Below are positions 47,398-53,024 of a stretch of 64,000 nt of DNA, piece after piece (position 1 is the first letter of the stretch; every line of letters starts with the position of its first letter). The notes under the pieces are model-generated. The model ran no database searches. It was not told the DNA's origin and saw only the letters and a list, made by a program, of their open reading frames with translations. The stretch is from an uncultured bacterium (GTDB taxonomy: Bacteria; Patescibacteriota; Doudnabacteria; UBA920), in contig CAVVMJ010000006.1 in assembly GCA_963749445.1 (NCBI GenBank), positions 10,979 to 74,978 on the forward strand, written 5' to 3'. The position numbers and the translations under genes are program-made.

Positions 47398-47796
47398 ATG
47401 ACAAGAAAGGAAAATATGTTTGATAATAGAAATGAAAGAGGGCTGTCCCCGGTCGATAAAATTTCGTTTGAGGCCAAAAACGGCGTTCTAAGTGGAGTAG
47501 CAAAATTTTATACAGAATGGAGAAGCCAGAGATATGGCAATCCTGGAGCAAACATACCGGAAAATCCTGATATGCCAAATTGGAAAAAGTATGCAGATAC
47601 CCAAAGAAATAAAATTGTAAATTCCATTTTAAATGAGCCAGAAACACAAAAATACACCGCAGATCCTAATTTTGATGTTTCGGATAATCAAAAGAGAGTT
47701 CGGCAGGTTATAGAAGCCATAGACTTTGAAATACAAACAGGTGTTGTTCAAAAATACGATAACCCCGAAGCTGCAAGGACAGCGAAAGGAAAATAA
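47398..47796 (+). CDS. Small AT-rich hypothetical ORF inserted between atpH and atpA
   Basis: 132-aa ORF with lower GC than the flanking atp genes and no recognisable domain. Confidence 0.3.
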   Translation: MTRKENMFDNRNERGLSPVDKISFEAKNGVLSGVAKFYTEWRSQRYGNPGANIPENPDMPNWKKYADTQRNKIVNSILNEPETQKYTADPNFDVSDNQKRVRQVIEAIDFEIQTGVVQKYDNPEAARTAKGK

Positions 47797-47802
47797 TATT
47801 TT

Positions 47803-49302
47803 ATGGCCTCAACAAACATAGTAGAACAACTAAAAAATAAAATCGCCGCGTTCCAGGCGGACGTGAGGGTAGAAAAAGTCGGGACAGTTTTGGAGGTGGG
47901 GGACGGCGTGGCACGCGTGAGCGGGCTTAAGGATGCCGCCAGTATGGAAATGTTGGATTTCGGAAACGGAGTTTTTGGCGTGGCGCTGAACCTGGAAGAA
48001 AGCGTTATCGGCTCCATCATCTTGGGCGATTATACGCATATTAAAGTCGGGGACACGGTACGTTTGACAGGAAAAATTTTGTCCGTGCCTGTCGGCGAAG
48101 CGGTTGTCGGCCGCACCGTAAGCGCGCTTGGCGAACCTAAGGATGGTAAGGGGCCGATTAAATCAGACAAATTTTATCCGACAGAAAAAATCGCGCCGGG
48201 CGTAATCACGCGCCAAAAAGTCAGCCAGCCGGTGCAAACCGGCATCAAAACCATTGACTCGCTTATTCCAATCGGCCGCGGCCAGCGAGAACTGATTATC
48301 GGCGACCGCCAAACCGGCAAGACCGCCATTGCCATAGACACCATCATCAACCAAAAAGGCCAGAATATGATTTGCGTTTACGTAGCTATTGGCCAAAAAG
48401 AAAGCAAGGTTGCCAAAATTGTCGCGGAACTGGAAAAGCACGGCGCCATGGAATACACCATTGTGGTCTCGGCTTCGGCTTCGGATCCGGCCGCTTTGTC
48501 TTATATTGCGCCGTACGCGGGTTGCGCGATGGGCGAATATTTTATGGACCAGGGTAAGGACGTGTTGGTGGTTTATGATGACCTGTCCAAGCAAGCGGTT
48601 GCTTATCGTGAGATATCACTTTTGCTCCGCCGCCCGCCGGGACGCGAAGCTTATCCCGGTGATGTGTTTTATTTACATTCCCGATTGTTGGAACGCGCCG
48701 CAAGATTAAATAAAGATTTTGGCGGCGGGTCATTAACGGCTTTGCCGATTGTGGAAACCCAGGCCGGCGACGTTACCGCTTACATTCCCACTAATGTGAT
48801 TTCAATTACTGATGGACAGATATTTTTGGAAACCGATTTATTCTATAAAGGCATCCGCCCGGCATTAAACGTCGGCATTTCCGTTTCGCGCGTCGGCGCA
48901 GCCGCGCAGACAAAAGCGATGAAGAAAGTCGCCGGCAAATTAAAACTACAATTGGCGCAATTCCGCGAATTGGAAGCCTTTGCGCAGTTTGGCTCCGATC
49001 TAGACCCCGAAACCCAAAGGCAACTTGACCTTGGCCGCCGCATGACCGAAGTCCTAAAACAGCCGCAATACACGCCTTTTGCCTTGGAAAAAGAAGTTAC
49101 AGTCCTTTACGCGGTCAACAACGGCTACTTTAATCCAATTCCCGTTGAAAAAATGGCGGAAACCGAGAGCAAATTTCACCAGTATATGTCCACCCAAGCC
49201 AAAGACGTCCTGGAAGAAATCCGCACCACCCGCGAACTCTCCGACTCCACGGAAGCCAAATTAAAAAAGGCAATTGAACAGTTTGTGCAGACGGTAAAAT
49301 AA
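47803..49302 (+). CDS. atpA: F0F1 ATP synthase subunit alpha
   Basis: [16 protein letters not shown]-loop and alpha-type flanking motifs. Confidence 0.9.
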
Positions 49303-49317
49303 CCCGCCCGACGTGTC

Positions 49318-49400
49318 CATCCCGGAATTTTTTGCGCAGATGGTTATCGTGAGCCGCAAAAAATATCCGGGATCCAGACTTAAGCTCGTCTCTGGATCCC
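49318..49400. repeat. R-hp hairpin element copy 3
   Basis: CATCCCGGAATTTTTTGCGCAGATGGTTATCGTGAGCCGCAAAAAATATCCGGGATCCAGACTTAAGCTCGTCTCTGGATCCCGG. Confidence 0.65.
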
Positions 49401-49415
49401 GGCTCTCGGCTGCAC

Positions 49416-49715
49416 TTGGCCGGGATGGAACGATTAAGATTTAAAAATATGTCGGAAGACTTTAGGAAAAAACTATCAAGCGCATCAAAGGAGTTGGGGA
49501 TAGAACCAACACCAGAAGGCCAAGAACCGATTATTGGAATTGGTAATAGAATTAGTTTTTTTATTTCCGCCCCAACAGGTGCCGGACGTTATCAAGAACA
49601 TGGAATTATTACAAGCAAACGAACAGATGAAAACGGAACTTTTATTACCCTGGATGATAGGAAGCAGATAGAATTTAGGGTAGAATCAATGGAAGAACTA
49701 AAAAAGATTCAATAA
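49416..49715 (+). CDS. Small hypothetical ORF inserted between atpA and atpG
   Basis: 99-aa AT-rich ORF that ends 2 nt before the atpG start. Confidence 0.3.
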   Translation: MAGMERLRFKNMSEDFRKKLSSASKELGIEPTPEGQEPIIGIGNRISFFISAPTGAGRYQEHGIITSKRTDENGTFITLDDRKQIEFRVESMEELKKIQ

Positions 49716-50765: not shown

Positions 50766-50768
50766 TTT

Positions 50769-51143
50769 ATGAAAAATAGATCTGATTACAGCGACCCCGA
50801 AAAAATCAAGGCAAGCACAACTTACAAAAATAGTTTACTAATGCGTCTTGCAGGGGGAATATGGAATAAACTTTACGGCTCAACGCCAGACGGGGCAAAA
50901 CAATTTTCTCAAGATCGGAGAAATCAATCGGGAAAATTTAAAGAAGCTTCAGGCCATCTACAGTCACCAGAAACAGCACTAGAGTATGCAAGACAACTTG
51001 GAATCGAAAATGAGGAATTAGCAAAGATACAATACGAGGCATTAAATGACGCATCACGGTTAGGGGATATTTACGTGGCAGGATCACCCGAAGAACTTGG
51101 TCAAATAGTCAAAGATTTATCCAAAAAGAAGCCAGTTAGTTAA
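50769..51143 (+). CDS. Small hypothetical ORF inserted between atpG and atpD
   Basis: 124-aa ORF with no recognisable domain. Confidence 0.3.
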   Translation: MKNRSDYSDPEKIKASTTYKNSLLMRLAGGIWNKLYGSTPDGAKQFSQDRRNQSGKFKEASGHLQSPETALEYARQLGIENEELAKIQYEALNDASRLGDIYVAGSPEELGQIVKDLSKKKPVS

Positions 51144-51170
51144 ATTTTTAAAAATTATTACTACCAATTT

Positions 51171-52712
51171 ATGAACAAAGGAACAATATCTCAAGTTATC
51201 GGGCCGGTGGTGGACGTGCATTTTCCCGCTGAAGGCGGGTCCGCCTCTGGCGGAAAGGATTCTAATAATTTGCCGGGGATTTATAATGCGCTGGAGGTGG
51301 AAATTACATCGGAAGACTCCAACCACCCCGCCGCCTCCGGCGGCACCCCTCCTTTTGAAGGAGGGGAAGCTCCGCAGGTCAACCGCGGAGCCTCTCACCC
51401 TGCCAAGGGGGAGTACCCTGCGAAGCAGGGGGAAGGGGTTGGAGTTCATAAATTAACCCTCGAAGTTCAGCAACAGCTTCCGGGCAATATCGTGCGTACT
51501 GTAGCCATGTCCAGCACCGATGGATTAAAGCGCGGGACAGAGGTAACGGACACAGGCGCGGGAATATCGGTTCCGGTGGGAAAAATCACGCTGGGGCGCA
51601 TTTTTAACGTCTTGGGGCAGGCTGTAGACGGCCAACCGACCCCGACATCCGACAAAAAGTACACAATCCACCGTCCGCCGCCCAAGTTTACCGACCAAAA
51701 CGTCAAAACCGAAATTCTGGAAACCGGCATTAAAGTTATAGACTTAATCTGCCCGATATTAAAAGGCGGAAAAGTCGGATTATTCGGCGGAGCCGGCGTA
51801 GGCAAGACAGTTATTATCCAGGAATTAATTAATAACATTGCCAAGGCGCACGGCGGCGTTTCGGTTTTTGCCGGCGTGGGTGAGCGCACCCGCGAAGGAA
51901 ACGACCTCTATCGCGAAATGAAAGAGGCCAACGTTTTGCCAAAACTGGCCATGGTCTTTGGGCAGATGAACGAGCCGCCCGGAGCCCGCGCGCGCGTGGC
52001 CTTGTCCGGTTTGTGTATGGCCGAATATTTCCGCGACGAAGAGCACCAGGACGTGCTGATGTTTATAGACAACATTTTCCGTTTTACGCAGGCAGGTTCA
52101 GAAGTTTCAGCTTTGCTCGGCCGAATACCATCAGCTGTCGGATATCAACCTACGCTTGCTACGGAAATGGGCGAACTCCAAGAAAGAATTACATCCACCA
52201 AAAACGGCTCCATTACTTCCGTCCAGGCGGTTTATGTACCGGCGGACGACTTAACAGACCCGGCTCCGGCCACGACTTTCGCTCACTTGGACTCTACTGT
52301 AGTTTTGAGCCGCGCATTAACGGAACTCGGCATTTATCCGGCGGTTGATCCCTCGGATTCCACATCCACGATTTTGGATCCGCTGATCGTAGGCGAAGAA
52401 CATTACAACGTAGCCCGCGGCGTGCAAAAAACTTTGCAGCGTTACAAAGATTTGCAGGACATTATCGCCATTTTGGGTATGGAGGAACTTCCCGAAGAAG
52501 ACAAAATTACCGTTACCCGCGCGCGCAAAATTCAGCGCTTCCTTTCCCAGCCTTTCGCCGTAGCCGAAGTCTTTACCGGCCGCAAAGGCGAATTCGTCAA
52601 GCTATCCGACACCGTCAAAGGCTTCAAAGCCATCTTAGCCGGCGAATACGACGGTGTGCAAGAGGGCGAATTTTATATGAAAGGCGGAATTGAACAAGTT
52701 AAAAAAAGCTGA
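51171..52712 (+). CDS. atpD: F0F1 ATP synthase subunit beta. It carries an in-frame, roughly 45-aa R4 element insertion (51317-51444) and a small GGCGGGTCCGCC palindrome insertion (about 51232-51262) in the N-terminal beta-barrel domain.
   Basis: [12 protein letters not shown]-loop and the DELSEED-region equivalent. The insertion reads [49 protein letters not shown]. Confidence 0.9.
51317..51444. repeat. R4 composite element, copy C, in frame inside atpD (module order 1-2)
   Basis: CTCCAACCACCCCGCCGCCTCCGGCGGCACCCCTCCTTTTGAAGGAGGGGAAGCTCCGCAGG..CCGCGGAGCCTCTCACCCTGCCAAGGGGGAGTACCCTGCGAAGCAGGGGGAAGGGGTTGGAG. Confidence 0.7.
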
Positions 52713-52724
52713 AATCTAAACCTT

Positions 52725-53024
52725 ATGGTAAGTAGACAAGAAATGATAAATTTTGGTCAAGACTCCATAGGGAGGGAAAACCCACCCTTGCCTTATGATA
52801 TGGAAAAATTAGAGACTAGATTTAATATGCTTAGCAAGTCACCCCGAAAATTAGAAATAGCCGGTTTATGGGCGCAAAATCTGACAGCGCCTAAAATTGC
52901 TCAGATCACCGGTTTAACTAAGCATATGGTCGAATCACACATACACGAGATTTACGCCCATTTTTTAATTCACTCAAAGCGAGAGTTACAGGATGTCTGG
53001 AAACTCCTGCACCAAAATTCTTAG
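52725..53024 (+). CDS. Small LuxR/GerE-type HTH protein inserted between atpD and atpC
   Basis: LSKSPRKLEIAGLWAQNLTAPKIAQITGLTKHMVESHIHEIYAHF matches LuxR-family HTH spacing. Confidence 0.4.
   Translation: MVSRQEMINFGQDSIGRENPPLPYDMEKLETRFNMLSKSPRKLEIAGLWAQNLTAPKIAQITGLTKHMVESHIHEIYAHFLIHSKRELQDVWKLLHQNS

Follow-up and report, generated by a model that had tools for sequence, protein, structure and literature searches.

Small open reading frames in junction slots of variable content within the ATP-synthase operon of a Doudnabacteria-like lineage

Few gene strings are as conserved among bacteria as the operon encoding the F-type ATP synthase, and the canonical form of this operon is contiguous: among the approximately 170 atp loci that we fetched, nearly all gaps at the gene junctions are shorter than 200 nucleotides (nt), in line with what the original prediction for the present locus had assumed. 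In T4-like phages, free-standing homing endonuclease genes of the seg and mob types lie between conserved genes. A known class of hotspots lies between core genes, contains no mobile elements and changes its content by homologous recombination in the core genes on either side; such mobile-element-free hotspots are over-represented in transformable bacteria, and the integration of new genes within operons is rare (Oliveira, Touchon, Cury & Rocha 2017, PMC5635113). The PD-(D/E)XK_3 family (PF13366, 'GxxExxY'), which we met repeatedly in this work, is of unknown function and has undergone multiple transfers (Steczkiewicz et al. 2012, PMC3424549). Here, we analyze a stretch of 64,000 nt (the window) from an uncultured bacterium of the Doudnabacteria, a lineage of the Patescibacteria or candidate phyla radiation (CPR); it spans positions 10,979 to 74,978 of contig CAVVMJ010000006.1 (assembly GCA_963749445.1). 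On its plus strand, between 44.3 and 53.5 kb, the window carries a complete F-type ATP-synthase operon with one small open reading frame (ORF) in each of four junctions of the F1 half, atpH-atpA, atpA-atpG, atpG-atpD and atpD-atpC, which we term slots 1 to 4 and which hold ORF1 to ORF4. We consider it rather likely that these ORFs are accessory genes of a narrow Doudnabacteria-like lineage, that the slots have repeatedly gained, replaced and lost their content, and that the cargo is exchanged by recombination.

The original prediction had placed four small ORFs without atp homology at these junctions. All four are present on the plus strand, and the starts of two were refined (Table 1). ATP-synthase families of Pfam gave no match to any of them up to E = 1, while the flanking ORFs do match. 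The content of the same junctions was compared in related operons (Table 2). The comparison set consists of ten operons with DNA (L162 to L171), whose AtpA is 86-92% identical to that of the window, and of ERZ1426829, for which only a gene list was used; not every relative covers every slot, and L165 is the same operon as L164 and covers slots 1 and 2 only. The view that the junctions are a hotspot for insertion is borne out by these relatives, in which the same positions hold non-homologous ORFs, PD-(D/E)XK_3 genes with inverted repeats, palindromic elements or nothing. It applies to the F1 half of the operon only, and the same kind of swapping is also seen further downstream, at the rmuC-NYN and PIN-uvrD junctions. 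The Fo junctions (Z-B-E-F-H) are free of ORFs in all nine relatives' contigs that cover them. In an all-against-all BLASTP comparison there was no similarity among the occupants of slots 1 to 3; the slot 4 proteins with a GerE domain (a LuxR/GerE-type helix-turn-helix, HTH) are weakly alike at the level of the HTH, and the PD-(D/E)XK_3 genes are clearly alike wherever they are located. The occupants also differ in kind and include soluble helical proteins, proteins with several transmembrane (TM) segments, PD-(D/E)XK_3 nucleases and one protein in which we read a Walker-A-like GKS motif. L162 and L163 share 91% in AtpB, 85% in AtpF and 73% in AtpZ, yet all four slots differ. When the slot contents of the window were compared with those of the relatives by nucleotide Smith-Waterman alignment, the z-scores stayed at background (at most 2.6), compared with 109 for atpH and 14.7 for atpZ, the least conserved atp gene (42% amino-acid identity). 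The idea that the slot contents are diverged copies of one sequence was rejected on the basis of these background scores.

The sequence comparison thus supports the term hotspot for the F1 junctions: the same core-gene interval contains different accessory genes across relatives, as in other hotspots of horizontal gene transfer. Since the relatives are related at the species to genus level and are not strains, the turnover can be called rapid only relative to the perfectly conserved gene order. With the mobile-element-free hotspots (PMC5635113) the junctions share the single interval with varied accessory genes, the high turnover, the lack of integrases and transposases and the conserved core flanks. 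Unlike those hotspots, the intervals lie inside an essential and tightly packed operon, each slot holds a single promoter-less ORF and not an island, and four consecutive junctions are involved. Because new genes rarely integrate within operons (PMC5635113), four consecutive occupied internal junctions are unusual. The operon-internal hotspot for single ORFs is a variant of the class already described. In the literature on PD-(D/E)XK_3/GxxExxY and on the ATP synthase of Doudnabacteria we found no description of this arrangement.

Table 1. Position of the atp genes, the small ORFs and the repeats of the operon in the window.
Feature	Coordinates	Strand	Remarks
atpZ	44307-44567	+	
atpB	44700-45563	+	
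atpE	45720-45959	+	
atpF	46184-46738	+	
atpH (delta/OSCP)	46905-47315	+	upstream flank of slot 1; Pfam OSCP E = 5e-24; 63-79% identity to relatives' AtpH
ORF1	47416-47796	+	slot 1; 126 amino acids (aa); stop 6 nt before atpA ATG
atpA (F1 alpha)	47803-49302	+	relatives 86-92% identical and named F0F1 ATP synthase subunit alpha
ORF2	49449-49715	+	slot 2; 88 aa; stop 2 nt before atpG ATG
atpG (F1 gamma)	49718-50765	+	Pfam ATP-synt matches both halves
ORF3	50769-51143	+	slot 3; 124 aa; 3 nt past atpG stop; 27 nt before atpD ATG
atpD (F1 beta)	51171-52712	+	513 aa; identified through homologs
ORF4	52725-53024	+	slot 4; 99 aa; 12 nt past atpD stop; 10 nt before atpC ATG
atpC (F1 epsilon)	53035-53490	+	downstream flank of slot 4; Pfam ATP-synt_DE_N E = 9e-23
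Slot 1 palindrome, imperfect	47312-47369	+	spans atpH stop; three-copy repeat family D10
Slot 1 hairpin	47380-47399	+	ATTCCCGC-CCTT-GCGGGAAT
Slot 2 hairpin repeat	49317-49378	+	62 nt; upstream of ORF2; copies at 33073-33134 and 44583-44639
Slot 2 perfect inverted repeat	49367-49378 / 49391-49402		12 nt
~137-nt element, copy in atpG	50366-50502		
~137-nt element, copy in atpD	~51305-51449		
~137-nt element, copy in atpF-atpH gap	46748-46886		
~137-nt element, copy past atpC	53495-53630		

Table 2. Content of the four F1 junctions in the window and in related operons.
Operon	Slot 1	Slot 2	Slot 3	Slot 4
Window	126 aa	88 aa	124 aa	99 aa, GerE
L162	72 aa, 2 TM (uncalled)	75 aa	empty	116 aa, GerE
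L163	97 aa	148 aa, PD-(D/E)XK_3	81 + 51 aa	133 aa, PD-(D/E)XK_3
L164	90 aa	empty	117 aa	91 aa, GerE
L170	89 aa	empty	119 aa	187 aa, double GerE
L171	121 aa	128 aa, multi-TM	not covered	not covered
L168	empty	158 aa	101 aa	empty
L169	empty	empty	empty	91 aa, HTH-like
L166	ORF-less, 198-nt gap	empty	empty	empty
L167	empty, 1-nt gap	ORF-less, 189 nt	ORF-less, 191 nt	ORF-less, 190 nt
ERZ1426829	not covered	not covered	ORF3 homolog	133 aa, PD-(D/E)XK_3

Homologs of AtpA put the window into the Patescibacteria; among those with 79-83% identity, Candidatus Doudnabacteria is the sole lineage with a name. The four ORFs are later additions and not ancestral subunits, because ORFs at the junctions are missing from the nearest outgroup with DNA and from two operons within the clade, and because nearly all of the roughly 170 fetched loci have only short gaps there. 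The outgroup, L001 (AtpA 77%), has a contiguous operon with junction gaps of 84-137 nt, and neither L166 nor L167 has an ORF at any junction. When the four ORFs were used as tblastn queries, the atp loci of 80 species representatives gave no match, and an AtpA scan of metagenomes returned nothing closer than 68% identity among the matches listed. A distant CPR genome, L003 (AtpA 68%), has three expanded F1 junctions (6932-8000, 10674-11753 and 13263-13828) that contain, among others, small ORFs on the minus strand and a PD-(D/E)XK_3-like gene directly before atpC. Since L003 shows expanded junctions too, the phenomenon is sporadic beyond the clade.

Several features indicate that the ORFs are genes, and it is highly improbable that some or all of them are spurious frames in expanded non-coding spacers, an idea that concerns ORF2 in particular, which may be an exception. 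The longest plus-strand open frames in the four gaps have 103-138 codons, and only 0, 12, 1 and 20 of 5000 shuffles of the gaps (slots 1 to 4) equaled them, so the frames are more than chance; open frames of this length are improbable in AT-rich DNA, and all four gaps are filled by ORFs on the coding strand. The AT-richness noted in the original prediction is real (GC 0.36-0.40; GC at third codon positions, GC3, 0.28-0.41), compared with a GC3 of 0.51-0.65 in the atp genes, atpZ excepted (0.47). GC is highest at the first codon position (GC1) in ORF1, ORF3 and ORF4. In ORF1 (GC3 0.28) and ORF3 (GC3 0.30) it falls in the coding-like order GC1 > GC2 > GC3, and in ORF4 GC3 (0.41) exceeds GC2 (0.32). 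A Shine-Dalgarno-like motif, AAGGAAAA, precedes ORF1; reading the sequence we saw no clear one before ORF2, ORF3 and ORF4, which would suit spurious frames, but the atp genes here equally lack such motifs. The same idea draws on the frameshifts in the assembly (see below), on the lack of a homolog of ORF2 and on the absence of ORF2 and ORF4 from a library of 5.8 billion clusters. It conflicts with the conserved homologs of ORF1, ORF3 and ORF4, for which structure models or a Pfam domain are also available. ORF1 most likely starts at ATG 47416 and then corresponds to the database protein P0001; its homolog P0129 aligns from its own Met1. For ORF2 the most likely start is ATG 49449, which gives protein P0125, and not TTG 49416, where the open frame begins. 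The start of atpC was set at ATG 53035 by alignment with the relatives.

All families to which the ORFs belong are very small. Homologs were sought in a word-indexed search of the 5.8 billion clusters and in an exhaustive HMMER search of 1.84 billion representatives with the concatenated ORFs as query. The former returned self-matches and a single homolog of ORF3. In the latter, ORF1 had one homolog (P0129, 38% identity, E = 5e-12), ORF2 (P0125) had none beyond itself, and ORF3 had three: P0003 with 77% identity, and P0126 and P0128 with 46% each in the four-sequence alignment (48% by phmmer). P0003 is encoded at the same slot, atpG-atpD, in another metagenome (ENA ERZ1426829), and an identical copy of ORF3 occurs in a second sample, L081, an independent Logan assembly (ERR10755942). 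The homologs of ORF4 are P0127 and P0130. P0127 is 52% identical when aligned over the full length, and phmmer gives 55% for residues 12-98; for P0130 the values are 28% in the alignment and 30% by phmmer. The conserved columns of the ORF1, ORF3 and ORF4 family alignments are spread over the whole length. We therefore regard ORF1, ORF3 and ORF4 as well-supported genes whose families are new or tiny. The orphan ORF2, which homology does not support, is the weakest of the four but probably a gene as well.

Structure prediction had been proposed as a check on the ORFs, and for ORF1 and ORF3 it gave confident models, for neither of which a match in the PDB was found. The AlphaFold2 models, built on alignments of 2-4 sequences only, are all-alpha, with a predicted local distance difference test (pLDDT) of 80.3 for ORF1 and 83.7 for ORF3. 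Foldseek returned no match below E = 1 for ORF1 against the PDB or for ORF3 against the PDB and BFVD. A sequence-profile search of the PDB matched designed helical repeats only and gave no sequence match for ORF1, and hhalign detected no relationship between ORF1 and ORF3. Families of Pfam, NCBIfam, PHROGs and PADLOC matched neither ORF1 nor ORF2, and those of NCBIfam, PHROGs and PADLOC did not match ORF3. ORF1 and ORF3 are likely small cytoplasmic (soluble) helical proteins of new families. ORF4 had been predicted to carry a LuxR/GerE-type HTH, and this stands as a borderline case: residues 39-89 match positions 4-54 of the 57 in GerE (PF00196) with E = 4.4e-5 and 23.5 bits, which equals the gathering cut-off. 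The assignment is helped by GerE matches in five of seven ORF4-homologous or same-slot proteins, with a best E of 5e-29. NCBIfam, PHROGs and PADLOC gave matches to ORF4 at the level of the HTH only, among them a weak PADLOC match to Csa3 (E = 1e-3), which was the sole match of any PADLOC defense-system profile to the four ORFs. ORF4 is akin to stand-alone GerE/LuxR regulators in its HTH domain, which most same-slot homologs match strongly; unlike them it has an N-terminal extension of 38 residues, a score at the cut-off and a location in the atp operon. ORF4 is likely a small regulator of this LuxR/GerE type that binds DNA.

Might the ORFs then serve the ATP synthase itself? They could be lineage-specific partners, such as accessory subunits, assembly factors or inhibitors, with ORF4 as a regulator of the operon, that are kept in place for stoichiometric co-expression. 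The tight co-orientation within the operon fits this idea, as do the predicted confident folds of ORF1 and ORF3 as small soluble proteins. The original prediction had held that conserved orthologs at the same positions in relatives would mark the ORFs as lineage-specific operon members, and this is found in part: ORF3, with its 77% identical homolog at the same slot, and ORF4, with the HTH genes at slot 4 of relatives, behave in part like such members. HTH genes of the LuxR/GerE type were found at slot 4 alone, and they recur there in the window, L162, L164, L170 and probably L169. A partner role is thus most credible for ORF4 and for ORF3. However, the occupants of one slot are unrelated in sequence and kind in spite of an AtpA identity of 86-92%, two genomes within the clade and all outgroups do without the ORFs, and L163 and ERZ1426829 have a PD-(D/E)XK_3 gene where the HTH gene would be. 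A mere 0-3 homologs per family among 1.84 billion representatives are likewise difficult to reconcile with partners of the enzyme, a role that we consider unlikely for the four ORFs.

The original prediction had further taken the locus for a hotspot of small selfish or regulatory cassettes, and a selfish nature of ORF1 to ORF4 was not supported. When the left end of each slot was compared with the reverse complement of its right end, terminal inverted repeats were not detected (z = 0.8, -0.1, 2.7 and 2.7 for slots 1 to 4), whereas the same test gave z = 4.8-19.8 for the elements in L166, L167 and L163. No duplication of a target site or flank longer than 12 nt surrounds the ORFs, and their bodies have no paralogs elsewhere within the 64-kb window. 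Pfam, NCBIfam, PHROGs and PADLOC revealed no nuclease, transposase, integrase or recombinase domain in the four ORFs; the GIY-YIG, HNH, LAGLIDADG and PD-(D/E)XK domains in Pfam, NCBIfam and PHROGs and the family PF13366 gave no match either. The prediction had linked the ORFs to repeats in the same gaps. Repeats are present in slots 1 and 2 and not in slots 3 and 4, and those of slots 1 and 2 are not positioned around the ORFs like the ends of a mobile element.

Clear mobile-element anatomy is found in the relatives. In L163, inverted repeats enclose the PD-(D/E)XK_3 genes (z = 15 and 4.8), and junctions of L166 and L167 hold palindromic elements of about 190 nt without an ORF (z = 11-20), at whose ends repeats such as GATACTAATATACTAAT occur. 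L167 also has a duplicate of the first 48 nt of atpG, which is located upstream of an inserted hairpin element. The junction elements of these relatives sit at L167 9584-9689, 10578-10768 and 12140-12329 and at L166 7803-8000. These elements count in favor of the idea that the ORFs are themselves autonomous and selfish, either as homing-type genes that stand free or as cargo of miniature transposons that aim at atp junctions and have decayed; the PD-(D/E)XK_3 gene at atpD-atpC in the distant L003 and the low GC3, which suggests a foreign origin, point the same way. For the window ORFs, which lack terminal repeats, duplications, mobility domains and paralogs, we hold this to be quite unlikely; it fits the PD-(D/E)XK_3 and palindromic elements of the relatives, not ORF1 to ORF4. 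A site-specific PD-(D/E)XK_3 lineage at atpD-atpC is also unlikely, as the L003 copy is closer to the slot 2 than to the slot 4 copy of L163. There is thus no evidence of a site-specific homing lineage, since the slot 4 nuclease of L003 is not specially related to that of L163.

The four ORFs were also compared with known mobile genes. Like the seg and mob genes of T4-like phages, ORF1 to ORF4 are small, AT-rich, co-oriented, wedged between conserved genes and present or absent among relatives, and the relatives carry small PD-(D/E)XK_3 and GIY-YIG genes in or near the operon; unlike seg and mob, the four ORFs have no nuclease domain and reside in a cellular genome and not in a phage. With integron cassettes they have in common that they are promoter-less single-ORF units in one orientation, presumably expressed from an upstream promoter and exchangeable at fixed positions. 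However, no attC-like inverted repeat is present at their 3' ends in the 2-27 nt before the next atp start, and they are split up by essential genes and do not form an array. Neither intI nor attI was seen, and no integrase was found among the window ORFs scanned, which were part of those in the window. Small genes of the PD-(D/E)XK_3 and 23S-rRNA-intervening-sequence (PF05635) families are scattered through CPR and other genomes. PD-(D/E)XK_3 genes fill the same junctions in slots 2 and 4 of L163 and in slot 4 of ERZ1426829 and L003. ORF1 to ORF4 belong neither to PF13366 nor to PF05635 and lack the inverted repeats that enclose the L163 copies.

The reading that we favor is one of accessory genes that move by recombination. 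Each F1 junction would be a long-lived slot whose content was gained, replaced and lost many times in the clade. The ORFs of the window would be promoter-less passengers that are made from the polycistronic atp transcript by read-through. Expression by read-through is the simplest assumption because the ORFs are co-oriented, nearly abut the next atp gene and are followed by no terminator above chance: terminator-like sites are at shuffle expectation, with no plus-strand signal exceeding it. Promoter-like sites are in modest excess (22, with 13.3 ± 3.9 in shuffles), which is no surprise in AT-rich DNA, and a scan with Rfam found tRNAs only. The window ORFs have no mobility machinery of their own, and DNA imported from related cells would be integrated by homologous recombination that is probably anchored in the conserved flanking atp coding sequences. 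New material may enter at times via inverted-repeat elements, such as the PD-(D/E)XK_3 units of the relatives. We favor the recombination route because the slots turn over and yet the window ORFs show no mobility features. The slots are used solely beside the most conserved genes: among the window, L162, L163 and L164 the nucleotide identity is 78-83% for atpA and atpD and 54-72% for atpZ, atpB and atpF, the close pair L162-L163 excepted. The similarity between the window and L162 ends at 47418, 49302, 50765 and 52706 and restarts 4-7 nt before the start codons of atpA, atpG and atpD and, at atpC, with the seventh base of the gene (53041). For L162, L163 and L164, the Fo genes and the F1 genes disagree on how the three are related, although the synonymous sites are saturated. 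The duplicated first 48 nt of atpG in L167, next to the inserted hairpin element, would also be compatible with the recombination route.

Some observations weigh against this interpretation. An identical cassette in two different backgrounds was not found among the operons compared. The four-fold degenerate sites are saturated between all genomes compared, and extreme divergence in situ is formally conceivable for some individual pairs of slot 1 or slot 3 occupants. ORF2 lacks homologs altogether. The recurrence of an HTH gene at slot 4 in five genomes could mean that the role of ORF4 is conserved and linked to the operon, and that it is not passive cargo.

A different view of the same junctions is suggested by slot 1. 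Here the window and L162 have the leader, with the palindrome, the hairpin and the AAGGAAAA motif, in common as far as the ATG; beyond the ATG the bodies are unrelated, a soluble ORF of 126 aa in the window versus a 2-TM ORF of 72 aa in L162. Because a conserved leader and ribosome-binding site precede interchangeable, unrelated ORFs, the F1 junctions might be a dedicated expression platform at which cassettes are exchanged with ORF precision, maybe by a still unrecognized insertion mechanism. We regard this as a long shot. If it were true, ultra-small symbiotic bacteria would use a constitutive essential operon to try out and express new small proteins, for example factors of host interaction or conflict, in a way that has not been described before.

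The wider window contains further examples of exchange and of repeats. At rmuC-NYN the window has an orphan ORF of 184 aa (56152-56706, GC3 0.30) that begins 2 nt past rmuC, and three relatives have a PD-(D/E)XK_3 gene at this position. At PIN-uvrD a PD-(D/E)XK_3 gene of the window (58334-58813) stands against a different ORF of 124 aa in ERZ1426829. A gene for a four-helix bundle of the 23S-rRNA-intervening-sequence type (PF05635) lies at 25853-26236. An IS200-like Y1 transposase gene (15150-16100) encodes an enzyme that could mobilize the palindromic repeats. Between 11500 and 16200, dispersed direct repeats (D1, D3, D4, D6, D13, D16 and D18), spaced by about 0.9-1 kb, adjoin toxin-antitoxin-like small ORFs and this transposase gene and look like tandemly duplicated small modules.

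Repeats have also entered coding sequences. A GC-rich multi-hairpin element of about 137 nt with the ends CTCCAACCACCCC...GGGGTTGGAG occurs in several copies in the operon (Table 1). It is read in frame within atpD and within atpG of L081 and L163, and in its intergenic copies the two halves stand in the opposite (circularly permuted) order. The in-frame element resembles the in-frame Rickettsia palindromic elements. With the element inside, AtpD of the window has 513 aa, compared with 455-479 aa in the relatives. Palindromic repeats lie in frame within murD (28343-28395) and murI (43166-43249) as well; the murD insert and the palindrome that spans the stop of atpH are members of one repeat family, and MurI has 300 aa in the window versus 264-288 aa in relatives. 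In atpG the frame is shifted at 50483-50484, where L081 (99.85% identical) has GC->A and one continuous frame through the element, so this frameshift is likely an assembly error or a strain polymorphism. Further, murD is split near 28433, where the frame changes just past the GNIG motif, the alignment of lepA with a relative runs through three frames (~35474-35604 and ~36428), and murJ (33217-34800) is possibly also frameshifted. These cases suggest that the assembly is prone to indels, and since several essential genes are frameshifted, ORF boundaries elsewhere need care.

The findings suggest that, at least in one CPR lineage whose genome is tiny, foreign small genes can be gained and replaced time and again within an essential operon. 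The slots point to a source of lineage-specific small proteins, including the two likely new helical families of ORF1 and ORF3, which have no match among the solved structures of the PDB, and a recurrent LuxR-type regulator is embedded in the operon. For annotation, such ORFs should not be mistaken for new ATP-synthase subunits. The locus offers a natural system in which to study the capture and expression of genes without a promoter of their own. It also allows one to ask whether gene flux is driven by recombination with its anchors in highly conserved genes, in bacteria for which the uptake of DNA is believed to be vital.

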